Below are positions 16,048 through 56,530 of a DNA stretch of 64,000 nucleotides, in pieces. Each line of letters starts with the position of its first letter. Positions within the stretch are counted from its first letter, which is position 1. The position numbers and the translations under genes are program-made. The stretch is from Candidatus Forterrea multitransposorum CG_2015-17_Forterrea_25_41 (GTDB lineage Archaea; Iainarchaeota; Iainarchaeia; Iainarchaeales; CSSED10-239), in assembly GCA_009392915.1 (NCBI GenBank), contig CP045477.1, positions 640,001-704,000 of the forward strand, given 5' to 3'. Under the pieces are notes generated by a model. That model was not told the DNA's origin. It saw only the letters and a program-made list of their open reading frames with translations, and searched no databases.

Positions 16048-17640
16048 TTAATTTCCTGTGTTGTTAGAAGATAAATTTGTGTATGCTTCTTCTAATTCCT
16101 GAATTTCATCTTGATAATTTAAAGATACAAGATCATATACTGTTTGAACTCCTAAAACAGGATTTAATTCAAATAATTTTCTATTAACATCTAAAGAAAT
16201 ATTTTGATCTTCAGAACATTTTAAGAAAAGTATAGGGAATATTGAAAAAACATCATTTGTAACTAAAGGTTTAATTACAAGATTTATTTTATCAGAATAT
16301 AAATATTCTTCATAAAATTCATCTGTTAAAGTTTCTTTTTCAAATTGATTACAATAAGGACAATCATAATCTGTGAAAAGAACAACTGAAACAGGTGCAT
16401 CTTCTGTACCAATTAATTTATCTGATTCTTTAATAATTGAAGAATAATCTAATATTTTATAGATACCATCAATACCACTACCTAAAGCAAGTTGAGGGAA
16501 AACATCTTCTCTTAAGATATATCCATTGTTAACAGTTTCTTCTTTAAAGATTAAATTAAAAATATCTTTATTTTCAGAACCATTAAAATCAACGGAATTA
16601 ACATCTCCTAAAACATACATTGCAGGTAATGTATTTGAACCAATAGTTTCTAAAATTTCAATTCCTAATTCAGAATCGTATTGTACATATTCAACATCTA
16701 AATCAAATAAAACAGAGAAAATAGAATTTACATTTTCAAGTAATAATTCAGAAGTTTTTAAATATTCAATAAACTCTGTATTCTTTTCAGAAATCATTTC
16801 ATTTTCTTTATCGTAAATATAATACATTTTTAATGAATCTTGAGTATATGAAAATGAAGAATTATCATAATTTAGATCTAATGACTCTACGTTTTCTACA
16901 GAATCAATAAACTCTGTAAAAACATTATAATCTTTAAAACCAGATAAATTATATCCATTTACATAGATTGTTGGAGTTGACATTACATATAATTCTTGTG
17001 CTTGTAAGAAATCATTTTGTATTACACTTACTTTTTCATAATCATATAGATTAGAATCTTTTAAAAGATAATTATTTTCTAAAAGACAAGCATCCATTTC
17101 TTCAGAATTAATATTTAAATCTGAATAACTTTCTTCTAAAATTTCTTTTTGATAAGTTCTCATATCAGTTAAAAGAGTTAAAGTTAAGTTTAATGATTTT
17201 TCTTCAAATTCTTCTGCACTCATAGTAACAGTAAAAGTATTTGAATCAATTGTATTTGTGTCAGTTCCATTTAAAGGATCATCATTTGTTTGAACAGGAG
17301 TTATAGGAATTAAAAATGCTAAAGCAATAATTAAAACTATTAAACCAGCTAAAACACCAATAATTACATAATCTCTTTTTTTAGTAGATCTCTTTTTTGA
17401 AACATCTTTATGTTTTTCGTGAGAATGAACTTCAACTTTTGGTTCGTGTTTTTCAATTTCAACTTTTTTAGGTGTTGAAACTTTTTTTGAACTCATCTTC
17501 TTTGGCATTGCCTTTTTTGAAGTAGTTGATTTTTTTTTTGCTTTGTTTTTATTAACATCTAAAACAGTATTTGTATCTTCAAAAACAACTTGTACTTTTT
17601 TTGGAGATTTAGCTTTAGATTTTTTTTTAGTTTTAGCCAA
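16048..17640 (-). CDS. membrane-anchored DsbA-like thiol-disulfide oxidoreductase with poly-Lys cytoplasmic tail
   Basis: The first ~95 aa are ~35% Lys, followed by one TM helix (YVIIGVLAGLIVLIIALAFLI). The extracytoplasmic region carries thioredoxin-fold modules, including DYDCPYCNQFEKE, a DsbA-type CPYC active site. Confidence 0.55.
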   Translation of the reverse strand: MAKTKKKSKAKSPKKVQVVFEDTNTVLDVNKNKAKKKSTTSKKAMPKKMSSKKVSTPKKVEIEKHEPKVEVHSHEKHKDVSKKRSTKKRDYVIIGVLAGLIVLIIALAFLIPITPVQTNDDPLNGTDTNTIDSNTFTVTMSAEEFEEKSLNLTLTLLTDMRTYQKEILEESYSDLNINSEEMDACLLENNYLLKDSNLYDYEKVSVIQNDFLQAQELYVMSTPTIYVNGYNLSGFKDYNVFTEFIDSVENVESLDLNYDNSSFSYTQDSLKMYYIYDKENEMISEKNTEFIEYLKTSELLLENVNSIFSVLFDLDVEYVQYDSELGIEILETIGSNTLPAMYVLGDVNSVDFNGSENKDIFNLIFKEETVNNGYILREDVFPQLALGSGIDGIYKILDYSSIIKESDKLIGTEDAPVSVVLFTDYDCPYCNQFEKETLTDEFYEEYLYSDKINLVIKPLVTNDVFSIFPILFLKCSEDQNISLDVNRKLFELNPVLGVQTVYDLVSLNYQDEIQELEEAYTNLSSNNTGN

Positions 17641-20877: not shown

Positions 20878-22323
20878 CTATCCTACAGAATTTTCAAACT
20901 CCATTTCAATTAATCTATTAAGTTCAACTGCATACTCTAAAGGAATTTGTTTTGAAAATTCACTTATAAAACCTAAAATGATTAAAGTAATTGCTTTAGA
21001 TTCATCAATACCTCTTGACATTAAATAAAATAATTGTTCTTCACCTATTCTTCCGACAGTTGCTTCATGAGAAACTTCTGCAGTAGGTTCATCAACAACT
21101 ATTACAGGATAAGTATCAGTCTTACTTATTGAATCAATTAAAATTGCATCACATCTAACATTAGATTTAACATTTTTAAGACCCTTATCTATTCTTACAA
21201 GCCCTCTATATGCTGATTCACCACCATCTTTTGAAATAGATTTTGAAACAATTGTTCCGGTGGTATTATTTGCTTGATGAACAATTTTTGCACCTGCATC
21301 TTGTTTTTGATTTTTTGAAGCAATTGCAATAGATAATACTTCTCCTCTAGAATTATCTCCTTTTAAATAAATTGCAGGATATTTCATTGTTAGTCTTGAA
21401 CCTAAATTACCATCTACCCATTCAACACTTGCATTTTTATAAGCAAAAGCTCTTTTTGTAACTAAATTATAAATATTATTTGCCCAATTTTGAATTGTAG
21501 TGTATCTTATACTAGCACCTTCTAAAGCAATAACTTCAACAACAGCTGCATGCAATGATTGAGTGGAAAATCTTGGAGCTGTACATCCTTCGACATAATG
21601 GATTTTACTACCTTCATCTGCAATTATTAAAGTTCTCTCAAATTGACCCATATTTGAAGAATTAATTCTAAAATATGCTTGAAGAGGAGTATCAACTTTA
21701 ACACCTTTAGGAACATAAACAAAAGAACCTCCTGACCAAACAGCAGAATTAAGAGAAGAAAATTTATTATCATCAATTGGAATTACAGATCCAAAATATT
21801 TTTTTACAAGTTCAGGATATTTTTTTAAACCTTCATCCATGGATAGAAAAACAACACCTTTTTCTTCAAATTCTTTTTTTGTTTTATGATAAATTACTTC
21901 AGAATCATATTGTGCACCAACACCTGCAAGAAAATCTCTTTCAGCTTTTGGAACCCCTATTCTATCAAAAGTTTTTTTAACATCTTTTGGAACATCTTTC
22001 CAATTTGTTTTTTCAGAATCTCCAACTGATGCAAAATAAGTTATATTTTTAAAATCAATTTCTTCAAGTGGCATTATTCCCCAAGAAGGCAATTTTTGTT
22101 TTATAAATGTTTTATAAGCTTTTAATCTAAAATCAAGCATCCATTTAGGTTCTTTTTTTATTTTTGAAATATTTTTTATAACAGTTTCACTTAACCCTTT
22201 ATCAAACTTAATTTTATAATCTTTTGTAGAATATGAAAAGTCATATTTCTTTATTTTTGTAGCTTTCTTAGCTTTTTTTAGAGAAGAATCTTTTACTCTT
22301 CCATCTATTTTATTTCTATTCAT
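20878..22323 (-). CDS. sufB: Fe-S cluster assembly protein SufB
   Basis: 481 aa; conserved SufB core (...HEATVGRIGEEQLFYLMSRGI...). Confidence 0.9.
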   Translation of the reverse strand: MNRNKIDGRVKDSSLKKAKKATKIKKYDFSYSTKDYKIKFDKGLSETVIKNISKIKKEPKWMLDFRLKAYKTFIKQKLPSWGIMPLEEIDFKNITYFASVGDSEKTNWKDVPKDVKKTFDRIGVPKAERDFLAGVGAQYDSEVIYHKTKKEFEEKGVVFLSMDEGLKKYPELVKKYFGSVIPIDDNKFSSLNSAVWSGGSFVYVPKGVKVDTPLQAYFRINSSNMGQFERTLIIADEGSKIHYVEGCTAPRFSTQSLHAAVVEVIALEGASIRYTTIQNWANNIYNLVTKRAFAYKNASVEWVDGNLGSRLTMKYPAIYLKGDNSRGEVLSIAIASKNQKQDAGAKIVHQANNTTGTIVSKSISKDGGESAYRGLVRIDKGLKNVKSNVRCDAILIDSISKTDTYPVIVVDEPTAEVSHEATVGRIGEEQLFYLMSRGIDESKAITLIILGFISEFSKQIPLEYAVELNRLIEMEFENSVG

Positions 22324-24722: not shown

Positions 24723-26873
24723 ATGCTTGAAACAAATATTAAATGGCTTAAAGAAATTTCAGATCATGAAGTCCTAGAAGTAGGATATAAAGCACATATT
24801 TTATCAGAAATTTCAAAAGCAAATATTCCACTTCCAAGAGGTTTTGTAGTTAATTATAAAAATTTTTTTAATTTTGTACAAAAAGATAATTTAAAAGAAA
24901 AAATAAATGAAATTTTAAAAACTATTGATTATAACAACAAAGAAGATATTGAAAAAAAATCAATAGAAATAAGAACACTTTTTTTAAAACAAAAATTTGA
25001 TGAAGACTTTATTTCTGATGTCTTAAAAATGTATACAAAGCTTGGAGAATCAAAAGTTGGATTTATGAATACCAAGGTAGATGAATATACAGCTATAAGA
25101 GCATCTGTTTCTTCTGAAGAATATCCTTTAAAAGAACTTGATCCAATAGAAAGACATACAGGTTTTTTAAATATTAAAGGAAGAGAAGAAGTATTAAACA
25201 GTATTAAAGAATGTTGGGCAGATCTTTATGCTCCTGAAATCTTAGAATATAAATATAAAAAAGGTTTTGAAGAAAATAAAATACATCTTTCAATAATTAT
25301 TCAAAAAATGATACCTGGTAAAAAATCAGGAATAATGCTAACTTCTAAAAATGATTCAAAAGATACAATTGTAATTGAAGCAATACATGGTTTTGGAGGA
25401 AAAAGCCTAATTACAGAAGTTACTCCTGATCACTATGAGATTAATAAAAAAACACTAACTACAATTAAAAAAACACAATCAAATCAAGAATGGATGCTTA
25501 AAAGAATTGTAGGAAAAACTACAAAAACAAATGTAGATGTTAAAGATAGTGAAAAACAAAAATTAAATCAAAGAGATCTAAATGAACTTGCAAATATAGG
25601 AAATAAACTTGAAATGATCTATGGAACTTCTTTAGAAGTTAATTGGGTAATGGATGAAAACGAAGAATTTCTAATTGTTAGTGTAAACCCAATTGATCCT
25701 AATCTTAAAAAAATTAAAAAAAAGAAAAAAATAGATATTACTTCTTATCAAGAAAAACTAGATAGTTATAAAAAAAATTTACTTTTAGAAGGTATTGGAG
25801 TTTCAAACGGACTTTCAATTGGTATTGTGAAAATAATTAATAATAAAAAAGATCTTTTAAGAGTTGATGAGAATACAATTTTTGTAACTAAAATGACAAC
25901 TCTTGAAATGTCACAAACATTAAGAAAAGCAAAAGGAATTGTTACAGATGCTGGAAGTACAATCTGTCATGCAGCATTAATTGCTAAAAAATATGATGTA
26001 CCTTGTGTAGTACACACAGAAAGATCAACAGAAATATTAAGAGATGGACAAGCTGTTTTAGTTAATGGATTTAATGGTAAAGTGTATAGTGTTATAGGGT
26101 ACGTTGCACCACCAATTACAAAAACAGTTACAGAAACTAGAAGAGAAAATGAAGTATCTATTGAAAAAGCACAAAATAAAGATCCAGAATATCCAAAGAC
26201 AATTACAAAAATATTTATTAAAATAAATAATTTAGAAGAAGTTAAAAGTATTAACTTACCTGATATTGATGGTATAGTTTTAAGCATAGATTCTTTATTT
26301 ACAAATTATGAAAAAGGAAGTATGCTTGAAAACATTAATTTATTAGTTCCAACAATTAAAAATAAACTTTTAGAAATTACTAAAATATTTGAAGGAAAAG
26401 AAATTTTCTATAAAGTAAATACACATAAACAAAATTTAATTACTGAAAATGTTTCAAGTTATGAAATTGAAGCTATTATGGAACTTAAAAGTAGAATTAA
26501 CATTTTACTTGAAAATATTAAATCTGCAGATGAAATAATTCCTGTTAAAGAAAATACAGAATCAAAAATAGGAGTTTTAGTTGAAAATATTAAAGAAAAT
26601 ATAATTTCTGAATATATTTCAAGAGGTATAGAAAATATAACCTTTAATTTAGAAGAAATTGATTTTGTAAAAGTAAAAGAAGTTATTAAAATATGTAAAG
26701 AAAATAAAATTATGAGAATTGCAGAAATTAATTCTAAAAATACAATTTCAAATATTAAAACATATATTGATTCAAATATCAATGGAGTAATTATTAATAA
26801 AGAACAATTAGAATATAAAGATACAATTTATAAACAAGAAAGAGATCTCTTAAAGAATCTTCTTTCTGTTTAG
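24723..26873 (+). CDS. PEP-utilizing enzyme family protein (PEP synthase / pyruvate phosphate dikinase-like)
   Basis: N-terminal PPDK_N ATP-grasp domain (VGYKAHILSEISKANIPLPRGFVV) and phospho-His mobile domain (GIVTDAGSTICHAALIAKKYDVPCVV). The C-terminal ~250 aa are divergent from the canonical PEP/pyruvate TIM barrel. Confidence 0.55.
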   Translation: MLETNIKWLKEISDHEVLEVGYKAHILSEISKANIPLPRGFVVNYKNFFNFVQKDNLKEKINEILKTIDYNNKEDIEKKSIEIRTLFLKQKFDEDFISDVLKMYTKLGESKVGFMNTKVDEYTAIRASVSSEEYPLKELDPIERHTGFLNIKGREEVLNSIKECWADLYAPEILEYKYKKGFEENKIHLSIIIQKMIPGKKSGIMLTSKNDSKDTIVIEAIHGFGGKSLITEVTPDHYEINKKTLTTIKKTQSNQEWMLKRIVGKTTKTNVDVKDSEKQKLNQRDLNELANIGNKLEMIYGTSLEVNWVMDENEEFLIVSVNPIDPNLKKIKKKKKIDITSYQEKLDSYKKNLLLEGIGVSNGLSIGIVKIINNKKDLLRVDENTIFVTKMTTLEMSQTLRKAKGIVTDAGSTICHAALIAKKYDVPCVVHTERSTEILRDGQAVLVNGFNGKVYSVIGYVAPPITKTVTETRRENEVSIEKAQNKDPEYPKTITKIFIKINNLEEVKSINLPDIDGIVLSIDSLFTNYEKGSMLENINLLVPTIKNKLLEITKIFEGKEIFYKVNTHKQNLITENVSSYEIEAIMELKSRINILLENIKSADEIIPVKENTESKIGVLVENIKENIISEYISRGIENITFNLEEIDFVKVKEVIKICKENKIMRIAEINSKNTISNIKTYIDSNINGVIINKEQLEYKDTIYKQERDLLKNLLSV

Positions 26874-30906: not shown

Positions 30907-32595
30907 ATGAATTTTAAAAAAATTATACTTTTTATTTTTTTATTTTTAATAATTACAACAACATATATAGGTAGTGTTTCAGCTCTTGAACAAAAAGAAG
31001 TAAACATCTATTTCTTTGGAACCTCAACATGTCCTTACTGTGCTCAAGAAAAAGCTTTTTTAAAAGATTTTGTAAATGAAAATATAAATGTCACTGTTAA
31101 CTATTACGAGCTTGACAAACAAAAAGAAGCATCTAAACTATTACTTGAGCTTGGAGAAGAATTTAATCAAAGAACAACAAATGTACCTTTAACTTTTATA
31201 TCTGACAAATCATGGATTGGTTTTTCAGAAAATATAAAACAAGAAATAATAAATCAAGTAAATGATTGTTCTCAAAACGAATGTAAAGATACTATTAATT
31301 TTCTTAATGAACCTAAATTCTGGGAAAAATATACAACAGATAAAGAATATGTAACAATAATTGAATCTGATAAAAAAGAAACTAGTTTTGAAAAACCAGA
31401 AATTGAAGATGTTTATGTTCATTTATTCTATGTGCCTGATTGTGCACAATGTCTTAATACTTTAGAATATTTTAAATATATTGAAAGTAAATACCCATTT
31501 ATAATTACAGAAAAATATAATCTTTTAGATCCAAAAAATAAAGAACTTTTTGAAGAATATAAAAATTTATATTCTCTACAAGTTGAAATTTTTCCAATAG
31601 TATTTATTGGAGAAACATATATTAGTGGAGAAACAAATATTAAAAATAATCTTGACAAAGAAATTGATAGATGTTATAACACAGACATTAATTGTTCATG
31701 TCCTGAAAAAACAATTCTCTCAAAAACAAATAAAATACCTTCTTCAGAAGAATATGTTTCTGGAGAAGAAAATAAAAAAATTAGTTTTTTTGGAAAACAA
31801 ATCGATCTTGGAAATAAATCTTTATTTTTAAATACTTTAATTATTGCTTTTGTTGATGGGTTAAACCCTTGCTCTTTATGGGTTTTAATGTTTCTATTAA
31901 GTATTGTTGTTTATTCTGGTTCAAGAAAGAAAATATTTTTAATAGGTATAACTTTTTTAGCAGTTACAGCAATTATTTATGGTTTATTTATAACAAGTGT
32001 TTTAAATGCTTTAATTTTCTTTTATAGTCCAATTATAAAAGTTATAATTGTTCTTGTAGCAGTTATTTTTGGACTAATAAACATTAAAGATTATTTTTGG
32101 TATAAAAAAGGAATTTCTTTAACTATATCTGAAAAAGAAAAACCTAAAATCTATGATAAGATAAGAAACATAATGAATCCTAAAAATAGTTTATTTGCAA
32201 TTATGTTAGGAACAATAATCTTAGCTGGAGGAGTTACAATTTTAGAAATTCCATGTACAGCAGGGCTACCTTTGCTTTGGGCAAACATGATTGCAAACAG
32301 TACTCTTTCAAGTACAGGATATTATCTTCTTTTAGGAATATATATGATTATTTATTTGTTAGATGAAATAGTTTTATTCTCAATAGCTATATTTACTTTG
32401 AAGATATCTAAGATGGAAGAAAAACATGGAAAGGTCTTAAAATTATTTAGTGGGCTTTTAATCTTTGGTATTGGTGTTTCCTTTGCAGTTGCAGATAAAT
32501 TTATGCAAAGTATTTTAGGAATATTACTATTAACAATAGGTTCTATTCTTTTAACATATATAATAAACAAAATATATACAAAATATAAAAAGTGA
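30907..32595 (+). CDS. fusion of secreted thioredoxin-like domains (CPYC + CAQC) with a DsbD/CcdA-type transmembrane thiol-disulfide transporter
   Basis: Signal peptide; module 1 IYFFGTSTCPYCAQEK; module 2 FYVPDCAQCL. The C-terminal polytopic domain carries the two conserved DsbD/CcdA cysteines in TM helices (GLNPCSLWVL and LEIPCTAGLPL). Confidence 0.65.
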   Translation: MNFKKIILFIFLFLIITTTYIGSVSALEQKEVNIYFFGTSTCPYCAQEKAFLKDFVNENINVTVNYYELDKQKEASKLLLELGEEFNQRTTNVPLTFISDKSWIGFSENIKQEIINQVNDCSQNECKDTINFLNEPKFWEKYTTDKEYVTIIESDKKETSFEKPEIEDVYVHLFYVPDCAQCLNTLEYFKYIESKYPFIITEKYNLLDPKNKELFEEYKNLYSLQVEIFPIVFIGETYISGETNIKNNLDKEIDRCYNTDINCSCPEKTILSKTNKIPSSEEYVSGEENKKISFFGKQIDLGNKSLFLNTLIIAFVDGLNPCSLWVLMFLLSIVVYSGSRKKIFLIGITFLAVTAIIYGLFITSVLNALIFFYSPIIKVIIVLVAVIFGLINIKDYFWYKKGISLTISEKEKPKIYDKIRNIMNPKNSLFAIMLGTIILAGGVTILEIPCTAGLPLLWANMIANSTLSSTGYYLLLGIYMIIYLLDEIVLFSIAIFTLKISKMEEKHGKVLKLFSGLLIFGIGVSFAVADKFMQSILGILLLTIGSILLTYIINKIYTKYKK

Positions 32596-33140: not shown

Positions 33141-33695
33141 ATGGACACAATAAACATATCTATTTATGGTAGAGGGGGGCAAGGTGCTAAAACCTGTGCT
33201 CAAATCATTGCAGAAGCAGGAGTTAAGGCAGGGAAAAATGTACAAGCTTTTCCTGAGTATGGACCTGAAAGAAGAGGTGCTCCTGTAAGATCTTATGTAA
33301 GACTTTCAAATAAACCTATTAGGACACATGAGCCTATCTTAAACCCTGATGTTGTTATTGTAATTGATGGTAATTTAGCAAATGTTTTAAAAGAAATTAA
33401 AGAATATTCTTCTCCTTTAATTATTAATGGAAATGCAGAGATTAAAGGTTTTAAAAGTAAAGAAATATTTATAGTTGATGGGACTAAAATATCTTTAGAA
33501 GAGATTAAGATTAATAATCCAAATATTGTTTTAATAGGTTCTCTTTTAAAAATCTTAGAAGATAAAAAAATTAATTTTATAAAATATAAAGATGTTGAAA
33601 AAGTTATTAAAGAAACATTTACTAAAAAAAGAAAAGAACATTTTATTATGCCAAACCTTAATTGTCTTAAGAGAGGATATAATTTTAAAAAATAA
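33141..33695 (+). CDS. porG: pyruvate:ferredoxin oxidoreductase gamma subunit
   Basis: YGRGGQGAKTCAQIIAEAGVKAGKNVQAFPEYGPERRGAPV is the POR gamma signature. Confidence 0.85.
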   Translation: MDTINISIYGRGGQGAKTCAQIIAEAGVKAGKNVQAFPEYGPERRGAPVRSYVRLSNKPIRTHEPILNPDVVIVIDGNLANVLKEIKEYSSPLIINGNAEIKGFKSKEIFIVDGTKISLEEIKINNPNIVLIGSLLKILEDKKINFIKYKDVEKVIKETFTKKRKEHFIMPNLNCLKRGYNFKK

Positions 33696-33711: not shown

Positions 33712-33999
33712 ATGACAAAAGAAAATAAAAAAATTGGTGGAGTTTTAGAAGGTGGAACTTCTAAACAATACAGTACTGGTAACTGGAGACATAAAAAACC
33801 AATCTGGGATTCTAAAAGATGTGTTCAGTGTATGTTGTGCTATGTTTATTGCCCTGATAATTGTATTTTAGTAAAAAAAAATAAAGATGGTAAGCTTGTA
33901 AGAACAGAAACAGACTTAGAGTTTTGTAAAGGTTGTGGAATCTGTGAAAAAGTATGCCCTGTTAAATGTATAAAGATGGTTGAAGAAGACAAAGAATGA
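33712..33999 (+). CDS. porD: pyruvate:ferredoxin oxidoreductase delta subunit (2x[4Fe-4S] ferredoxin)
   Basis: Two CxxCxxCxxxCP motifs (CVQCMLCYVYCP, CKGCGICEKVCP). Confidence 0.85.
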   Translation: MTKENKKIGGVLEGGTSKQYSTGNWRHKKPIWDSKRCVQCMLCYVYCPDNCILVKKNKDGKLVRTETDLEFCKGCGICEKVCPVKCIKMVEEDKE

Positions 34000-34577
34000 T
34001 TCTAATGAACTTTATTGAAGAATTAAATCAAATAGAAACAATCATCAAAGTAAAAGAAAGCAAAAGAAAAAGTATTGTTGAAGAAAGATATGAAAGTTCT
34101 GCAGAACACACTTTTGGATGTATTCTTTTAGCACAATATTTTTTAAAAAAAATACCAGATAAATTAGATGAATTAAAAATATTAAAATTATTAAGTTACC
34201 ATGATATTCAAAATATCTATTTTGAAGATATAAATATAACAGATGAAAATTGGAAAAATAAAAAAAATCTTGAAAAAATAGCACATGAAAAAACAATTAA
34301 GACAATTCCAAAAGAAATATCTGAAGAATATAAGACACACTACATAGAATTTGAAGAATTAAAAACAAAAGAATCCAAATTTGCAAAAGCCATTGATGTT
34401 TTAGAACCAGTAATACACGCTAGCAATCATAAAGAACATTGGATAAGAGGAAACTGGAAGGAATCAGATTTAAGAAAACATAAAGAAAAATATTTAACCG
34501 AATTTCCAATATTAATGGAATTCTTTAATGAATTTGTAAATTATGCAAAAGAAAATAATTATTTTATAAAAGAATAG
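33996..34577 (+). CDS. HD-domain phosphohydrolase (YfbR-like 5'-deoxynucleotidase family)
   Basis: SSAEHTFGCILLA (H), LLSYHDIQNIYFEDI (HD), ...FAKAIDVLEPVIHA (D) in YfbR-like spacing. Overlaps porD by 4 nt and ends 13 nt before porA. Confidence 0.6.
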   Translation: MILMNFIEELNQIETIIKVKESKRKSIVEERYESSAEHTFGCILLAQYFLKKIPDKLDELKILKLLSYHDIQNIYFEDINITDENWKNKKNLEKIAHEKTIKTIPKEISEEYKTHYIEFEELKTKESKFAKAIDVLEPVIHASNHKEHWIRGNWKESDLRKHKEKYLTEFPILMEFFNEFVNYAKENNYFIKE

Positions 34578-34589
34578 ATGTGAAAAAAA

Positions 34590-35750
34590 ATGAAAACTAA
34601 AAAAACAGCACTTAACGGCGGAGAAGCAATCTCCTATGCAATAAAACAAGTAGATGTTGATGTGTTTGCAATGTATCCTATAACACCACAAACACCAATC
34701 ATTGAAAGTTATGCAAACCATCATAATAATGGAGAAGTTACAACTGAATTAATCTTAGTTGAATCAGAACATTCTGCTCTTTCAACAGTTATTGGTTCAG
34801 CTGCATCAGGTGCCAGAAGTGTAACAGCAACAGCCTCTCAAGGTTTAATGTACATGTATGAAGTTTTATCAGTTGCATCTGGTTTAAGACTTCCAATTGT
34901 TATGCCTGTTGCAAATAGAGCTATCTCTGCACCTATAAACATACATTGTGATCATAGTGACGCTATGGCTTGTCTTGATCAAGGATGGATGATGGCTTTT
35001 TGTGAAAGTGCACAAGAAGCATATGACATGACAATCTTTGCTTTTAAACTTGCAGAAAAGGTTTCTCTTCCAATCATGGTGTGTATAGATGGTTTTTATA
35101 CTTCACATAATTTAGAAAATTTAGAAACATATGAAGACAAAGTTGTTAAAAAATTTGTAGGAGATTACAAAGGACCTTATAATCTTTTAGATACAAAGAA
35201 ACCAATCTCTATTGGTGCACTTTCTCTTCCAAATACATTTTTTGAAATAAAGGTGGAATTGTTTAAAGCATTTGATGATGTTGAAAAAGATTTTTTAGAA
35301 GTTTCAAAAGATTTTGAAAAGACTTTTGGAAAAAAAATTAATTTCTTTGAAGAGTATAAAGTAAAAGATGCTGAAGTGGTTATTGTTGTAATGTCCTCAA
35401 CTGCTCAGTCAACAAAAAATGTTATTGATAAATTAAGAAAAGAAAGAAAGAAGGTTGGGCTTTTAAGACCTATTCTTTTTAGACCTTTTGTTTATTCTAA
35501 ATATCTTAATACTTTAAAAAAAGCAAAAGAAATAATTGTTCTTGATAGAGCTGAAGGCCCAGGATCCTCTTCTCCTCTTTATAAAGAAATTAAACTTTCT
35601 GTTTGCGATAATGATAAAAAAATAAATGTAACCTCTTATGTCTTTGGACTTGGAGGAAGAGATCTTTTTGAAAAAGATATTGAAGAACTTCTTAATGGTT
35701 TTATAAAAGGAAAACCAAATAAAGAAAAATATTTAGGGCTTAAAAAATAA
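34590..35750 (+). CDS. porA: pyruvate:ferredoxin oxidoreductase alpha subunit
   Basis: 386 aa; conserved POR alpha N-terminus (ALNGGEAISYAIKQVDVDVFAMYPITPQT). Confidence 0.85.
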   Translation: MKTKKTALNGGEAISYAIKQVDVDVFAMYPITPQTPIIESYANHHNNGEVTTELILVESEHSALSTVIGSAASGARSVTATASQGLMYMYEVLSVASGLRLPIVMPVANRAISAPINIHCDHSDAMACLDQGWMMAFCESAQEAYDMTIFAFKLAEKVSLPIMVCIDGFYTSHNLENLETYEDKVVKKFVGDYKGPYNLLDTKKPISIGALSLPNTFFEIKVELFKAFDDVEKDFLEVSKDFEKTFGKKINFFEEYKVKDAEVVIVVMSSTAQSTKNVIDKLRKERKKVGLLRPILFRPFVYSKYLNTLKKAKEIIVLDRAEGPGSSSPLYKEIKLSVCDNDKKINVTSYVFGLGGRDLFEKDIEELLNGFIKGKPNKEKYLGLKK

Positions 35751-35762
35751 AGTGAAAAATTT

Positions 35763-37796
35763 ATGAACTATATTGAACTTGCAAGTAAAATTGAAGAAAG
35801 AAAAGCTATTGTTCCTGGACATAGAACTTGTCCTGGGTGTCCTATAGCCATTATCTTAAGAACAGCATATGCTGCAACTGATAAAAAAATAATAACATCA
35901 TCTGCTACATCCTGTGCAGAAGTTACAACAACAATTTATCCTTACACCTCATGGAATGAACCTTGGATTCATTCTGTTTTTGCAAATGCTGCAGCAACCA
36001 TATCTGGTGTTGAAACTGCTTATAGAGCTTTAAAGAAAAAAGGAAAGATAAAAGAAGAAATTAAATTTATGGCTTTTGCTGGAGATGGTGGAGCTTTTGA
36101 TATTGGACTTCAGAGCCTTTCAGGAGCTCTTGAAAGAGGACATGATTTTGTTTTTGTTTGTTACGATAACGAAGGTTACCAAAACTGTTTATCAATAGAT
36201 TCATTAATAATGACAGAAACAGGTCTTAAAAAAATAACTGAAATTAAAAAAGGAGAGAAAGTCTGGGCTTTTGATCAAAATAAACATTTGCCGGTACTAA
36301 AAGAATGTACAGGGGTCTTTAATAATGGAAGAAAAAGAGTATACGAAATAGAAACTATACATCAAAATATAAAAGCAACATCAAACCACCCATTCTTAAC
36401 TTTAAAAAGAAACGGTAGAGGAAAAGAAAACGAGCTTATCTGGAAAACAGTTTCTCAATTAAAGGTAAATGATGAAATTGTAACTATGAGAAAACTTTAT
36501 GATAAAGGAAAAGCATATGAATTTAATAAAATAAAGCTAACTAAAAAAGGCGATTATAAAGTAAATATTATTAATGATGTTAAGCTTCCAGAAAAATCTA
36601 CAAAAGAATTAATGTTATGGCTAGGTTTATATGTTGGAGATGGATGGATTAGAGAAGAAAGAGGAGAAATTGGATTTGCTCTTCCAGAAAATACAGAAGA
36701 GAGAAAAATACTTCTTAAGATCCATAAGAAAATATTTGGACAAGAAAATAAATCTAAAGATAAATATTACATATACTATAATTCTGTAAATATTTCAAAA
36801 TTTATTAATTCCTTAGGGTTTATGCAAGGTGCTAAAAATAAAACAATACCATCTTGGGTTTTTACTTTACCAATAGATCAAAAAGAAGAATTTGTAAAAG
36901 GTTTATTAATGTCTGATGGATATATTTATAAAAAGAAAAAAGATAGTTGTAGATATTTATCAGCAAGCAAAGAATTAATTAAAAGATTAAGACTTTTACT
37001 TCAAACAATGGATTACAGAGTAGGAAAAATAACTATTCAGAAAAAACCAAAAGGAACTTTTGTAGTTTATAGAGAAATGTTAAATGATGGAGAATACTAT
37101 AGTATTTGTTTTAGTAAAAAAGACAAATGGGATGTTAAAAAATACCCTAACCAATACAAATATCAAAATTATTTTATTGAAAATGAATATTTTGAAACAA
37201 GAAAAATAAAAAATATTATTCCTAGAGGAATTGAACAAACATTAGATTTAAGAGTTGATGGAGAACACAACTTTATTGCAGATGGAATTGTTGTTCATAA
37301 CACAGGAGCACAACGATCCTCTGCAACACCTTATGGAGCTTCAACAACTACCACTCCTGGAGAGAAAAAAGAATTTCAAAAAGATCTTGCAAGGATAGCT
37401 ATTGCTCATAAAATACCATATGTTGCAACTGCAAACCCAGGAAATCTTTTAGACATGCATGAAAAGTTTAGAAAGGCTTTTGAAAAGAAAGGGCCAGCTG
37501 TAATCATTGTTTATGCAGCATGCCCTACAAACATGAAGGCTCCTGAAGACTTAACTATTGATATTTCAAAGCTTGCAACTGAAACTAATTTTTGGCCACT
37601 TTATGAAGTTGAAGATGGAAAATATAAAGTAAACTATAAGCCTGCAAATAAAAAACCTATTGAAGAATTTTTAAAAATGCAAACTAAGTTTAAAGAAGTT
37701 TTAAAAGATAAAAATGAAATTAAAAAAATACAACAAGAAATAGATGATGATTTTAAAGAACTTCTAAAAATGGAAGAAGCTTTTCCTTTAAAATAA
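35763..37796 (+). CDS. porB: pyruvate:ferredoxin oxidoreductase beta subunit, interrupted by an in-frame intein
   Basis: Exteins give a normal ~305-aa PorB. N-extein carries the TPP-binding CPGC / GDGG; the conserved YxNTGxQxSxxTPxGAxTxTTP motif is split as ...YDNEGYQN|[intein]|TGAQRSSATPYGASTTTTPGE. Confidence 0.85.
   Translation: MNYIELASKIEERKAIVPGHRTCPGCPIAIILRTAYAATDKKIITSSATSCAEVTTTIYPYTSWNEPWIHSVFANAAATISGVETAYRALKKKGKIKEEIKFMAFAGDGGAFDIGLQSLSGALERGHDFVFVCYDNEGYQNCLSIDSLIMTETGLKKITEIKKGEKVWAFDQNKHLPVLKECTGVFNNGRKRVYEIETIHQNIKATSNHPFLTLKRNGRGKENELIWKTVSQLKVNDEIVTMRKLYDKGKAYEFNKIKLTKKGDYKVNIINDVKLPEKSTKELMLWLGLYVGDGWIREERGEIGFALPENTEERKILLKIHKKIFGQENKSKDKYYIYYNSVNISKFINSLGFMQGAKNKTIPSWVFTLPIDQKEEFVKGLLMSDGYIYKKKKDSCRYLSASKELIKRLRLLLQTMDYRVGKITIQKKPKGTFVVYREMLNDGEYYSICFSKKDKWDVKKYPNQYKYQNYFIENEYFETRKIKNIIPRGIEQTLDLRVDGEHNFIADGIVVHNTGAQRSSATPYGASTTTTPGEKKEFQKDLARIAIAHKIPYVATANPGNLLDMHEKFRKAFEKKGPAVIIVYAACPTNMKAPEDLTIDISKLATETNFWPLYEVEDGKYKVNYKPANKKPIEEFLKMQTKFKEVLKDKNEIKKIQQEIDDDFKELLKMEEAFPLK
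36186..37301 (+). mobile_element. intein with LAGLIDADG homing endonuclease (372 aa) in porB
   Basis: Begins CLSIDSL (block A Cys1) and has block B ATSNHPF (TxxH). Two LAGLIDADG motifs (LWLGLYVGDGWI, FVKGLLMSDGYI). Ends ...NFIADGIVVHN with +1 Thr. Boundaries were mapped codon by codon. Confidence 0.8.
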
Positions 37797-44879: not shown

Positions 44880-46988
44880 ATGTGCTCAATAATTGGTTTT
44901 GTAAACTACAAAGAAACTAAAAAAGAAATAATCTCTGCGTTTAAAACTCTAGAAAAAAGAGGTCTTGATGGATATGGAGTTTTTTGTAATGATAAGTGTA
45001 GTTATTTTAAAGAGATTAAAGAGATAGAATCTAAAAACATCCCTGATGATGTTGTTTTTGGACACAACTTACTTTCTATAACAGGAAATGTTTCACAACC
45101 TATTATTATTGATAAAAAAGTACTTTTATCTAATTGTGAAATATATAATTACAAAGAACTTTCTTCAAAATACAAAATAGATTCAAAAAATGATTCTGAT
45201 TTTTTACTTAAAGCAATAATAAAGATTGGAAAAAAAATATTTACTGAAATTAATGGACCTTATGCTATATGTTATTATGATGGCAGAGAAATTTATTTAA
45301 GAAGAGATTTATTAGGGATAAAGCCTTTATGGTATTCAATAGAAAAAAAATCATTTGGGTTTGCTTCAGAAAAGAAAGTTTTAGAAAATGCAGGTTTTAA
45401 AAAAATTGAATTTTTAGATCCTAGAAAAGAACTTTCTTATAATGTTTTAAAAAATAAAATTAGTTTTAAACAAATACCATTCTTTAAAATAGAAAAAAAA
45501 CAAACAACAAAAGAAAAAGTATATGAAAAACTAAAAAATGCAATTTTTAAAAGAGCATCTGGAAAACAAAAAATTGCTCTTTTATATAGTTCAGGAATAG
45601 ATTCTTTAGTTATTGCAAAAATTTTAAAAGATAATAAAATTCCTTTTAAAGGGTACTTTGCATATTCTCAAGATATTTTAAACCCTAAAGATCTTTCAAA
45701 TGTTTTAAGAACAGAAAAAGAATATGGTTTTTCTATTGAAAAGATTAAAATTTCTAAAACAGAAATTGAAAAAACATTACCTTTACTTATAGAGAGAGTA
45801 GAGTCATCAAACCCTATAAAAATTGGTGTGTCCTTACCTATATACTTTGCTTCAAAAAAAGCAAGAAAAGATGGTTGTAAAGTTATTCTTTCAGGACTAG
45901 GATCTGATGAAATTTTTGCAGGATATTCAAGATTTAAAGAATCAACTAATCTTTTAAAAGATACTTTAAACCTTTTATACCAAATGCATGAAAATGATCT
46001 TTATAGAGAAGATGTGGTTTGTACAAATAATAACATAGAAGCAAGATTTCCATATCTTGATAAAGAAGTTATTGAAGAATCTTTTTGCCTTACAGACAAA
46101 CAAAAAATTAATAATGAAGAAAATAAAGTAATCTTAAGAGAGATTGGAAAAGAAATTGGTCTTTTAAAAGAAGATTACAAGAGGAAAAAAACAGCAGCAC
46201 AATACGGAAGTGGATTTGATAAAATGATTGAAAAAATAGCAAAAGAAAATAATGTTAAACAAAAAGGAGAATTTCTTAAAAAACTTTCAAAAAAAGAAAA
46301 CCTTACTTTAGGATGTCTTTTCTCAGGTGGAAAAGATTCAAACCTTGCATACCACATTATGGCAAGACAAAATTATAAGATTGCATGCTTAATGACAATG
46401 GTCACTGAAAACCCAGATTCTTATATGTTTCAAAAAATTGATGAAAAAATACTTTCTCTTCAATCCAAAGCATTAGAAGTGCCTTTTGTTTTTCAAAAAA
46501 CAAAAGGAATTAAAGAAGAAGAACTTAAAGACCTTAAAAGATTACTTTTCAAAGCAAAAGAAAAATATTCTCTTCAAGGAATAATTACTGGTGCTATAAA
46601 AAGTAATTATCAAAGAGAAAGAATACAAGATGTTTGTAATGAACTTGGTTTAAGAATGTTTTCTCCTCTTTGGAACAAAACACAAGAAGGTGTTTTAAAA
46701 GAACTTTTAGATGATGACTACCAAGTAATGATTGTAAAAATTGCAGGACAAGGACTTTCTGAAAATTGGCTTGGAAAAGTTTTAACTAAAGAAGACGTCA
46801 TTAACTTAAAAATAATTAATAAAAAGAAAGGAATTAATGTTGCAGGAGAAGGAGGAGAATATGAAAGTATTGTTCTTGATGCTCCACTTTATAAGCAAAA
46901 AATAGTAATCACAAGTGCAAACCCAATTATGGAAAATGAAATCACTGGTTATTTAGATATTTTAAAATTAGGTTTAGAAGAAAAATGA
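44880..46988 (+). CDS. fusion protein: asparagine-synthetase-like glutamine amidotransferase (AsnB) + diphthine-ammonia ligase (Dph6/MJ0570-like)
   Basis: Residues 1-~460: Ntn-GATase MCSIIGF, then AsnB motifs SSGIDSL, LSGLGSDEIFAGY, REDV...EARFPYLD. Residues ~475-702: PP-loop LFSGGKDS, GAIKSNYQRERIQDVCNELGLRMFSPLW, GEGGEYESIVLDAP, closely matching DPH6/MJ0570. Confidence 0.65.
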   Translation: MCSIIGFVNYKETKKEIISAFKTLEKRGLDGYGVFCNDKCSYFKEIKEIESKNIPDDVVFGHNLLSITGNVSQPIIIDKKVLLSNCEIYNYKELSSKYKIDSKNDSDFLLKAIIKIGKKIFTEINGPYAICYYDGREIYLRRDLLGIKPLWYSIEKKSFGFASEKKVLENAGFKKIEFLDPRKELSYNVLKNKISFKQIPFFKIEKKQTTKEKVYEKLKNAIFKRASGKQKIALLYSSGIDSLVIAKILKDNKIPFKGYFAYSQDILNPKDLSNVLRTEKEYGFSIEKIKISKTEIEKTLPLLIERVESSNPIKIGVSLPIYFASKKARKDGCKVILSGLGSDEIFAGYSRFKESTNLLKDTLNLLYQMHENDLYREDVVCTNNNIEARFPYLDKEVIEESFCLTDKQKINNEENKVILREIGKEIGLLKEDYKRKKTAAQYGSGFDKMIEKIAKENNVKQKGEFLKKLSKKENLTLGCLFSGGKDSNLAYHIMARQNYKIACLMTMVTENPDSYMFQKIDEKILSLQSKALEVPFVFQKTKGIKEEELKDLKRLLFKAKEKYSLQGIITGAIKSNYQRERIQDVCNELGLRMFSPLWNKTQEGVLKELLDDDYQVMIVKIAGQGLSENWLGKVLTKEDVINLKIINKKKGINVAGEGGEYESIVLDAPLYKQKIVITSANPIMENEITGYLDILKLGLEEK

Positions 46989-54391: not shown

Positions 54392-56530
54392 CTAAAAAGC
54401 ATCAGGCTCTGTTGCTTTTAAAAGACCAGATCTAGGTTCATAAATATCCCCTATTTTCTTAAGCTTTGAAATAGCATCCATTACTTTATCTTTATCATGA
54501 CCTTCTTTTGTTGTAAAATCAATAAACTCTTTTGTGGTAATAGGATCTTTTGAAGATAAATCTTTTAAATATTTTAAAACAACTTTAATAAAGTTTCTCT
54601 CACTTTGAGATTGACCAGTCTGCAAAATATCAATATCAATCTTACCAGTCTCTTTATCCATAGCAACTTGCTCTAAAGAAGTTTTAAATATCCTAATTGC
54701 TCTTTGAGCATCTTCTGCATCAATGGTTTTTTTAAGTTTTATTTTAGCACTAGCTTCAGATAATCTTATAAAACCTTCAAGCTGTCTTGGTGTTGCAGTA
54801 AAACTTCTATTTTTTCTACCTAAATCTCTTAACTCAACATAATATTTTAAAATAATATCAGAAGCTTCTTTTGAAAGAACAGGACGTATATTCTGTCTTG
54901 CAAAAGCTACAAATTTTTTAAAAAGATTAGGATCAATTGAAGGAAGTATTTCTTTTTCAATATCATTTAATTCTTCTTTTGAAATAGTTTTATCTCTACC
55001 AGATAATTTTTCTGCAAGTTCTTGAGTTCTTAAAACATGTTTTGCAATATCTGAATCCATTTGTCTATCTAAAAGATCTGGAATTACAAAATAAAGATCA
55101 AATCTTGAAAGAAGAGAAAAAGGTAAGTCAATTTGTTCTAAAGGATTCTTATAAGGATCAAACCTATTGTATTTTGGATTTGCAGCAGCTAAAACTGATG
55201 TATCAGCTCTAAATTTACTATATAAACCTGCCTTAGATACAGAAACTGTAGCTTGAGCCATTGCTTCGTGAAGAGAAGATCTATCATCTGCACCAATCTT
55301 ATCAAACTCATCAATCATTGCAATTCCACCACTTGCTAAAATAATAGCACCGGCTTTTAAAGTCCAACCACCTTCTCCATATTCATCTTTCACAGCAGAA
55401 ACTGTAAGACCAGCACCAGAAACTGTTTTTCCTGCAACATATATACTTTTTGGAGCTAAAATATTTGCATATTCTAAAATTTTAGATTTACCAGTAGAAG
55501 GATCTCCCACAAGAAGAATATGTATGTTTCCTCTAAACTTTTGTTTTGCAATTTCTTTTTTAACACCACCAAACATTTGTAAGGTTACAGCTTCTTTTAC
55601 AACTTCATGTCCAAAGATATTAGGAGCAACTGATTTTGATAATAATTGATAAACATCTTCTTTTTTTGAAAGAGCTTTAATATCTTGTTCTTCTTCATAA
55701 GATATTTTTAATTCTTCATACTCTTGATCTATTTTTTCAATATGGTTTGCAACTAGATATCTTGAAAAAATATTAATGTCTCCTTTTGGAGGTCTTAATT
55801 TTAATGTACCAGTTACAATTATTTTATCTCCAGCTGAACATCTATTAACTAAATCATCTGATAAATAAACATCTATGTTAGAGGCTTGTTCTGAACCTTT
55901 TAAGTTTTCTAAAGGTTCTTGAATTTGTATTTTTTGATAATCAATAAATTTAGATTGTTCTAAATCTAAATCAAACTCTCTAGATTTACATTCATTACAC
56001 ATTACAGGTTTTACAAGTTGTTGTGTTTTTTGAGATAAAACAACTGGAGTTGAACATTTTCTACAAATATAATAAGCTTGAGTTAATTTTTCTAATTTTT
56101 CAGTAATAACTCTTATTGTTCCTTCAACAGAGACAAGATCAGTTAAATGTTCAGAACCAACTTCCCTTATTGAAACTCTGTATTCTTCAGGAAGATTAAA
56201 AAATCTTACAATAGGTTCAAAATTATCTTCAATTTCTGAATCTAAAATACCAAGATCTATTTTTTTAATAGCAACATTTGCTGCTTCAAAAATAATACCT
56301 GGAGAAGATAATAACCTTTCTGCTAAATTTAGATCAAAATCTTCTAATTTTTTATAATCAATATCTAATGATTTTTTTGTAGGATAATTAGAGGCTAATT
56401 GTTCAATTTCTTTTTTATAAACATCTTCAAAAAAATCTATAAAGAGATCAACATATTCATCAACTAAAATACTCTTTGATTCTTTAATATCAAACTCGTT
56501 TAATTCTTTTTCAAGATCTATATCAACCAT
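54392..56530 (-). CDS. mcm: MCM replicative helicase
   Basis: Zn finger (CRKCSTP...CNECKS), Walker A GDPSTGKS, Walker B IDEFDKI, arginine finger SRFDL, and a C-terminal wHTH. Confidence 0.95.
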   Translation of the reverse strand: MVDIDLEKELNEFDIKESKSILVDEYVDLFIDFFEDVYKKEIEQLASNYPTKKSLDIDYKKLEDFDLNLAERLLSSPGIIFEAANVAIKKIDLGILDSEIEDNFEPIVRFFNLPEEYRVSIREVGSEHLTDLVSVEGTIRVITEKLEKLTQAYYICRKCSTPVVLSQKTQQLVKPVMCNECKSREFDLDLEQSKFIDYQKIQIQEPLENLKGSEQASNIDVYLSDDLVNRCSAGDKIIVTGTLKLRPPKGDINIFSRYLVANHIEKIDQEYEELKISYEEEQDIKALSKKEDVYQLLSKSVAPNIFGHEVVKEAVTLQMFGGVKKEIAKQKFRGNIHILLVGDPSTGKSKILEYANILAPKSIYVAGKTVSGAGLTVSAVKDEYGEGGWTLKAGAIILASGGIAMIDEFDKIGADDRSSLHEAMAQATVSVSKAGLYSKFRADTSVLAAANPKYNRFDPYKNPLEQIDLPFSLLSRFDLYFVIPDLLDRQMDSDIAKHVLRTQELAEKLSGRDKTISKEELNDIEKEILPSIDPNLFKKFVAFARQNIRPVLSKEASDIILKYYVELRDLGRKNRSFTATPRQLEGFIRLSEASAKIKLKKTIDAEDAQRAIRIFKTSLEQVAMDKETGKIDIDILQTGQSQSERNFIKVVLKYLKDLSSKDPITTKEFIDFTTKEGHDKDKVMDAISKLKKIGDIYEPRSGLLKATEPDAF

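Follow-up and report, generated by a model that had tools for sequence, protein, structure and literature searches.

A probable class-1 intein with a LAGLIDADG endonuclease in the putative pyruvate:ferredoxin oxidoreductase beta subunit of an Iainarchaeota archaeon, and its relatives in archaea and bacteria

A 64,000-nucleotide stretch of the genome of Candidatus Forterrea multitransposorum CG_2015-17_Forterrea_25_41 (GenBank assembly GCA_009392915.1, contig CP045477.1, positions 640,001 to 704,000; hereafter the window) carries a porB gene with an intein lying in frame within it. The enzyme is very probably a four-subunit pyruvate (2-oxoacid):ferredoxin oxidoreductase (PFOR) of this Iainarchaeota (DPANN) archaeon, of which PorB is the beta subunit. 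We also consider it highly likely that the insert is a canonical class-1 intein with a LAGLIDADG (DOD) homing endonuclease, for which sequence and modelled fold predict protein splicing and DNA cleavage. The family to which it belongs is apparently active and still spreading among anaerobic archaea and bacteria.

The porB open reading frame (ORF) and its parts are given below in window coordinates, with intein residues numbered from Cys1 and conservation counted over 179 distinct copies of the intein.

35763 to 37796, plus strand: porB precursor ORF, 677 aa plus stop (2034 nt), frame intact, last gene of the por operon
35763 to 36185, plus strand: N-extein, aa 1-141, with C23, C26 and C51, the GDG motif (D108), Asn136 and the -1 residue Asn141
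36156 to 36185, plus strand: left half of the putative homing site, which joined to 37302-37331 gives the sequence of an empty allele; the width of the recognition site is presumed
36186 to 37301, plus strand: putative class-1 intein (Cys1 ... His371-Asn372), 372 aa, precursor residues 142-513, between Asn141 and Thr514
36186 to 36224, plus strand: block A (CLSIDSLIMTETG), starting with Cys1, the predicted N-terminal nucleophile; Cys1 in 179/179 homologues
36378 to 36389, plus strand: block B, T65-S-N-H68; T65 and H68 in 179/179
36609 to 36647, plus strand: LAGLIDADG motif 1, LMLWLGLYVGDGW, aa 142-154 of the intein, with predicted catalytic Asp152; Asp in 174/179
36891 to 36923, plus strand: LAGLIDADG motif 2, FVKGLLMSDGY, aa 236-246 of the intein, with predicted catalytic Asp244; Asp in 176/179
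37233 to 37301, plus strand: blocks F and G (EQTLDLRVDGEHNFIADGIVVHN), with Asp354, His361, His371 and Asn372, each in 179/179
37302 to 37796, plus strand: C-extein (Thr+1 to stop), beginning TGAQRSS, with Cys587 (precursor numbering) at nt 37521-37523

Translation of nt 36186-37301 gave a polypeptide of 372 aa running from CLSIDSL to GIVVHN, flanked by CYDNEGYQN on the N-terminal side and by TGAQRSS on the C-terminal side. Block F reads EQTLDLRVDGEHNF and block G reads VVHN, followed by Thr+1; the C-terminal junction thus ends in DLRVDGEHNFIADGIVVHN before a threonine that is present in 121/121 homologues. These observations bear out the anatomy given in the original prediction, which had described, from the letters of the window, a PorB of 677 aa where about 305 aa is normal, with a 372-aa insert at 36186-37301 that starts with Cys (CLSIDSL), contains a TxxH block B and two LAGLIDADG motifs, ends in HN before Thr, and splits the motif Y-x-N/T-G-x-Q-x-S exactly between N and T (here and below a slash marks the junction). 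The extein-only product is indeed 305 aa long, and the junction reads YQN/TGAQRSS.

Profile searches identified the insert as an intein with four models, each scoring above its curated cut-off: Pfam Intein_splicing (60.3 bits; cut-off 35.8), Pfam LAGLIDADG_3 (37.5; 22.5), NCBIfam intein_Nterm (28.6; 24.5) and NCBIfam intein_Cterm (25.4; 15.6). Given E-values of 1e-16 to 1e-9 and the recurrence of the architecture in hundreds of independent assemblies, a chance product can be ruled out. A dead, non-splicing insertion or an assembly artefact in a porB pseudogene is next to impossible, since the conservation data all but refute it: the reading frame runs unbroken through 2034 nt, the splicing residues are all conserved, hundreds of assemblies made independently share the arrangement, a 671-kb contig and a single-cell genome among them, and the exteins show a ratio of nonsynonymous to synonymous substitution rates (dN/dS) of 0.06, from which it follows that the host gene is under selection. 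In favour of an artefact there is nothing beyond the chimeras that metagenome assembly can in general produce.

An AlphaFold2 model of the intein, built from an alignment of 120 homologues, reached a mean predicted local distance difference test score (pLDDT) of 94.3 and a predicted template modelling score (pTM) of 0.92. The best Foldseek matches in the PDB were all endonuclease-bearing inteins, led by TliVMA (7qsu; E 7e-21, TM 0.74) and followed by PhoVMA, PI-PkoII, PI-SceI and PI-PfuI; full-length structural matches include PI-PkoII, PI-SceI, PI-PfuI and the Tli and Pho VMA inteins. The splicing half of the model matched mini-inteins (DnaB, RecA, gp41-1) and the hedgehog Hint domain, as expected of a HINT fold, and in the endonuclease region a helix starts at each LAGLIDADG motif and is followed by strand pairs, as expected of a pseudo-dimeric alpha/beta fold. 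The PorB intein thus has every feature of a class-1 intein that can be read from a sequence or a predicted fold.

In order to place the insertion point within the host enzyme, the exteins were joined and aligned with PorB models and solved structures. The extein-only product of 305 aa gave a single unbroken match to the PorB model NF008819 (344 bits; positions 5-298 of the 300 in the profile), whereas the match of the full 677-aa precursor was broken into two. The spliced product also aligned gap-free across the junction with the beta subunits of oxalate oxidoreductase (OOR; 5c4i_C, YANTGIQTS) and of a four-subunit PFOR (9bt4_C, YMNTGIQRS), and with Desulfovibrio africanus PFOR (1b0p/7plm, YSNTGGQSS). 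Two checks attached to the original prediction, contiguous alignment of the exteins to PorB and recognition of the intein blocks by profiles, thus came out in its favour.

In the numbering of the 1232-residue chain 7plm_A, to which the exteins align without gaps, Asp108 of the GDG motif corresponds to position 963 of the D. africanus enzyme, Asn136 to position 991, and Asn141, the -1 residue directly after which the intein is inserted, to Asn996. The GDG motif and a downstream Asn hold the Mg2+ of thiamine pyrophosphate (TPP), the Mg-binding Asn of the Sulfolobus enzyme being Asn118b, while among the residues lining the pyruvate pocket of D. africanus PFOR is Asn996, which rotates upon pyruvate binding and whose equivalent in Sulfolobus OFOR influences substrate specificity (PMC5020499). 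Asn136 of the window PorB would be the counterpart of Sulfolobus Asn118b, an assignment that stays tentative because position 991 of D. africanus PFOR is Thr. The placement of the intein within the TPP-binding motif, as originally proposed, was therefore approximately correct: the insertion falls on the C-terminal edge of the GDG-X-N Mg/TPP motif, 5 residues past Asn136 and directly after Asn141. The junction is also among the most conserved parts of the protein, ranking 17th of 294 sliding windows over 241 PorB exteins, and insertion at so conserved a site is typical of inteins.

C23, C26 and C51 of the N-extein and C587 of the C-extein align with D. africanus positions 812, 815, 840 and 1071. 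In D. africanus PFOR, Cys812, Cys815, Cys840 and Cys1071 are the ligands of the proximal [4Fe-4S] cluster; the alignment numbering agrees with this, and we take the four cysteines of the window PorB to be cluster ligands as well. The insert accordingly parts the GDG...N136...N141 Mg/TPP segment from the TGxQRS loop that follows it, and three of the aligned cluster cysteines (C23, C26, C51) from the fourth (C587). Because both are separated in this way, the precursor is expected to be inactive, and splicing would then be obligatory.

The identity of the host can safely be put, from its sequence, as a divergent PFOR/VOR-type 2-oxoacid:ferredoxin oxidoreductase beta subunit, with pyruvate as its probable substrate. 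It has the GDG...N TPP/Mg motif, the four cluster cysteines and an operon shared with alpha, gamma and delta subunits. The spliced product nevertheless missed the equivalog cut-off of the PorB model (344 bits on NF008819 against 405) and scored 309 bits on the VOR-beta model NF008818; the window PorA, PorC and PorD likewise fell under their own NCBIfam equivalog cut-offs.

The following sequence of events is proposed. The porB gene would be translated as an inactive 677-aa precursor, in which an N-S acyl shift at Cys142 would be followed by transesterification to the side chain of Thr514, cyclisation of Asn513 with the assistance of His512, and an O-N shift. The products would be a 305-aa PorB with the native YQN-TGAQ peptide and a free intein of 43 kDa. 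The latter would act as a site-specific DNA endonuclease, cutting intein-less porB at the conserved sequence over the insertion point, and repair of the cut allele by recombination would copy the intein in. Homing of this kind would account for the patchy yet very wide distribution of the PorB intein.

This distribution was determined by several searches. Among the matches listed when the precursor was searched against 5.8 billion proteins, the PorB intein was found in at least 120 clusters at 90% identity, all of them 647-1023 aa long and with the insert at the same position, and the arrangement N/C...HN/T was present at the identical site in 121/121 homologues, which answers the call of the original prediction for other genomes with an intein at this site. 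Scanning one genome per GTDB species revealed a relative of the intein in 234 genomes, the nearest being 94% identical and located on a 671-kb contig of a Candidatus Iainarchaeum metagenome-assembled genome (MAG). Together with the local synteny, the presence of TopoVI and MCM and the G+C content of 24.5%, this match puts the window in the Iainarchaeota (DPANN). The judgement that the intein is unusual thus holds for the type of host, and not for the intein itself. At the 50% identity level, in a library of 1.84 billion representatives, the PorB intein is represented by two full-length sequences; the family is tight and separate, with internal identities of at least about 55%.

The titles of the archaeal genomes concerned name Woese-, Nano-, Aenigmat- and Micrarchaeota, Altiarchaeales, Hadesarchaea and Bathyarchaeia, and those of the bacterial genomes name Omnitrophota, Patescibacteria, Aerophobetes, Planctomycetia, Clostridia, Cloacimonadota and Vermiphilus. 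Since MAG labels can be wrong, the Omnitrophota case was checked by its neighbouring genes. In this single-cell genome (L012 1183-7623), the intein-bearing por operon lies directly downstream of the bacterial genes dnaX and recR, and the PorB intein family therefore spans both prokaryotic domains. In many bacterial bins the PorB extein groups with those of Woese- and Nanoarchaeota, at identities of 55% or above, which suggests that the por operon, as well as the intein, may have moved between domains. A viral vector for the intein was also considered and found no support: when 2.9 million viral contigs were scanned with the intein alignment, no PorB-type copy came up, and the viral matches were distant intein relatives only, with full-length identities of about 29% at most.

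Conservation within the family extends to both halves of the intein. C1, T65, H68, D354, H361, H371 and N372 are invariant among the 179 distinct copies, the catalytic LAGLIDADG aspartates are kept in 97-98% of them, and the endonuclease domain is as well conserved as the splicing domain. For the endonuclease domain, comparison with the closest relative (L001) gave a dN/dS of 0.15, and comparisons with others gave 0.14-0.24; the extein value for L003 (0.405) was left out as it looks like an alignment or truncation artefact. The endonuclease domain is under purifying selection.

Alleles with and without the intein coexist. Searching with the spliced sequence uncovered empty alleles at up to 89% extein identity, and invaded and empty alleles interleave throughout a neighbour-joining tree of the exteins. 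In one near-identical pair, an intein-bearing gene (P0003) and an empty one (P0124), 303 of 305 extein residues are identical; in a second pair, 302 of 308. Three empty sites (L081-L083) encode the same amino acids as the flanks of the intein in the window and share 25 of the 30 central bases with them. Moreover, the histories of intein and host are discordant. Across 2775 pairs from 75 genomes, the inteins were more alike than the exteins in 93% (means of 62% and 50% identity), with some pairs combining exteins that are 35-46% identical with inteins that are 71-81% identical, and intein clusters cut across extein clusters. In two close comparisons, the synonymous divergence (dS) of the intein was lower than that of the flanking extein (0.30 vs 0.44, and 0.64 vs 1.08).

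Several points weigh against an element that is active and mobile. Splicing and DNA cleavage are predictions, for the copy in the window and for the whole family alike. Higher identity of inteins than of exteins could in principle reflect strong constraint instead of transfer; the bootstrap intervals of intein and extein dS touch or overlap, and the low intein dS could come partly from a stronger A+T bias (25.8% vs 33.2% G+C). Organism names in MAG titles are unreliable, and a single bacterial host was checked by its neighbouring genes. No co-conversion tract was found when an intein-bearing gene (L084) was compared with two empty ones (L082/L083), the 28 differences in 918 nt being spread evenly, so that this near-identical pair cannot tell recent gain from precise loss. 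Within the clade of the window, finally, intein and extein identities co-vary (98/98, 96/94, 85/89 and 76/80%), and the intein of the window genome may be old and vertically inherited. Compositional foreignness of this intein was considered and rejected: its G+C content of 25.8% matches the window average of 24.5% and gives no sign of recent import. From the co-varying divergence and the genome-like composition, it follows that the intein is probably no recent arrival in the window genome.

That the window copy is a vertically inherited passenger, competent in splicing but with an inactive endonuclease, would agree with the co-varying identities, with the genome-like G+C content and with the lack of a co-conversion tract in the comparison of L084 with L082/L083. 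We nonetheless regard it as unlikely, as both catalytic aspartates are intact in the window copy, its endonuclease domain shows a dN/dS of 0.15 against its closest relative, and its own clade is polymorphic for presence and absence of the intein, some alleles with exteins 86-89% identical being empty.

An active homing element is also in keeping with the stages of a homing cycle, all of which (full, degenerate, mini and empty) were seen among the relatives. At the site of the window intein, one relative (P0257) has a mini-intein of about 153 aa from which the endonuclease has been deleted, and in another (P0250) the LAGLIDADG motifs have degenerated, with Asp changed to Ser and to Asn, and there are internal deletions; these two copies would represent decay stages of the cycle. 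A second PorB intein site was found directly after GDGG (AGDGG/CY...N/S(F or Y)DIG, in P0008, P0252, P0257 and L069). It is occupied by an intein of the LAGLIDADG type, about 340 aa long, which ends in GN or MN and lacks the penultimate His. Some relatives hold both inteins in one gene, giving precursors of about 1020 aa (1019 aa for the PorB ORF of L069), and in the window the second site is empty (GDGG-AFDIG). Both sites fall within the best-conserved part of PorB, one on either side of the TPP/Mg-binding segment.

In some archaeal inteins, splicing is known to be under the control of a disulfide. The PorB intein has a second invariant cysteine, Cys41, which is present in all copies besides Cys1; the intein sits directly at the active-site Asn and between Fe-S ligands, and it is conserved as much as, or more than, the core enzyme that it interrupts. 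These features would fit an intein that is kept as a conditional switch, sensitive for example to redox state or oxygen, that delays or blocks the maturation of PFOR, an oxygen-labile enzyme, for as long as conditions are not reducing, with the endonuclease being secondary. Such a role, which is compatible with homing, seems to us quite unlikely. Empty alleles are common even among near-identical exteins, from which it follows that the host does not need the intein; the catalytic residues of the endonuclease are kept and under purifying selection, as expected of a selfish mobile element and needless for a switch; and mini and degenerate copies exist. A bolder combination would have the family, at the site after Asn141 and the site after GDGG, as a cross-domain element that is homing now among ultra-small anaerobes sharing habitats (DPANN archaea, Patescibacteria, Omnitrophota and others), its strong conservation and its Cys1/Cys41 pair reflecting co-option as a redox-gated switch on the maturation of the oxygen-sensitive PFOR; this we offer as speculation and hold to be very unlikely. 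The reading that we prefer thus remains a class-1 intein with a DOD endonuclease of a family that spreads by homing.

The remaining genes of the por operon were assigned by matches to domain models, and an additional ORF lies among them.

33141 to 33695: porC, upstream of porB in the por operon, from domain-model matches
33712 to 33999: porD, upstream of porB in the por operon, from domain-model matches
33996 to 34577, plus strand: ORF with an HD domain (Pfam HD_3, 77 bits), located after porD, whose stop it overlaps by 4 nt, and before porA
34590 to 35750: porA, directly upstream of porB, from domain-model matches

The HD-domain ORF at 33996-34577 has no gene at the corresponding place in the 94%-identical relative (L001), and the HD gene was rejected as a conserved part of the por operon. 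The intein-free relatives L081-L083 have other, unrelated ORFs in this operon: porD and porA are separated by ORFs of 263 aa and 192 aa, and porA and porB by one of 242 aa. In the clade of the window, the por operon appears to be a hot spot for small inserted genes.

Among the large ORFs of the window that were checked, porB was the only one with an intein, none being found in MCM, SufB, a phosphoenolpyruvate (PEP)-synthase-like protein, TopoVI-B, ArgRS, acetyl-CoA synthetase and others. MCM (54392-56530, minus strand), SufB (20878-22323, minus strand) and the PEP-synthase/PPDK-like protein (24723-26873, plus strand) are classic intein hosts elsewhere. Two further observations concern other parts of the window. 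An ORF of 702 aa at 44880-46988 (plus strand) combines glutamine amidotransferase and asparagine-synthase domains with a C-terminal diphthamide-synthase (Diphthami_syn_2) domain, and looks like an unusual fusion. The ORFs at 30907-32595 (plus strand) and 16048-17640 (minus strand) encode large proteins of 530-560 aa; the latter has a Pfam Thioredoxin_4 domain, and in the former, inspection alone pointed to two thioredoxin-like modules of the CxxC type with several hydrophobic segments behind them. Both may be disulfide-handling membrane proteins.

With these findings, the beta subunit of PFOR, a core enzyme of anaerobic carbon metabolism, joins the intein hosts, with two sites that bracket its TPP/Mg-binding segment. 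PorB alleles offer unusually rich natural data on the homing cycle: hundreds of alleles, all four stages, near-identical invaded and empty pairs, and hosts in both prokaryotic domains. In practical terms, PorB proteins of 670-1020 aa in genomes of DPANN archaea, the candidate phyla radiation (CPR) and Omnitrophota should not be taken for fusions or pseudogenes in gene calling and metabolic reconstruction but be counted as functional precursors, and a compact, highly conserved intein of 372 aa with Thr+1 could serve as a protein-engineering part. The understanding of intein mechanism is left unchanged. The main interest of the PorB intein is evolutionary, and lies in its cross-domain spread, its very high conservation, the two sites in one cofactor motif and the abundant invaded/empty polymorphism.

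No description of an intein in PorB or PFOR came to light in full-text literature searches or in the main text of Novikova et al. 2016 (PMC4760082), the main survey of prokaryotic inteins, InBase lying outside this search. The PorB intein is apparently undescribed in the literature, although automatic annotation has already flagged it, with JGI protein names that read 'pyruvate/2-oxoacid:ferredoxin oxidoreductase beta subunit/intein/homing endonuclease'. Only a minority of inteins lie in energy and metabolic enzymes, with precedents in VMA and SufB, so the description of such a host as unusual needs to be qualified by the VMA ATPase (7qsu, 1vde) and by SufB. Further precedents outside replication and repair, also at conserved catalytic motifs, are the InBase inteins in PEP synthase, GlmS and UDP-glucose dehydrogenase of Methanocaldococcus jannaschii.

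The best structural matches of the PorB intein, the VMA inteins (TliVMA 7qsu/7qss, PhoVMA 7qst, PI-SceI 1vde; Foldseek E 7e-21 to 1e-12, TM up to 0.74), share with it a class-1 HINT splicing domain and a nested two-motif LAGLIDADG endonuclease, and they too lie in an energy-conversion enzyme, at a conserved segment that binds a ligand. However, they are only 13-19% identical to it in sequence, and their host is the catalytic subunit of the A/V-ATPase, not a TPP/Fe-S enzyme. At 372 aa the PorB intein is compact, whereas PI-SceI, with solved chains of about 405-450 residues, is larger and has an extra DNA-recognition region. The nearest sequence relatives outside PorB, among the 1.84 billion representatives, are the inteins of SufB, T4-like phage portal proteins and ClpP, which match over the full length at 29-36% identity (up to 276 bits) and have the same architecture in other hosts and at other insertion sites. 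Among solved structures, the best sequence match was the Ssp DnaB intein (1mi8; E 2e-9) for the splicing blocks and PI-PkoII (2cw7; E 4e-8) for the endonuclease domain. Unlike PorB, the hosts of both are replication proteins; 1mi8 is a mini form of 158 residues that lacks an endonuclease domain, and PI-PkoII, at 537 aa, is far larger than the PorB intein. Taken together, the sequence and the modelled fold indicate that the PorB intein is mechanistically ordinary, a textbook class-1 intein with a predicted DOD endonuclease.

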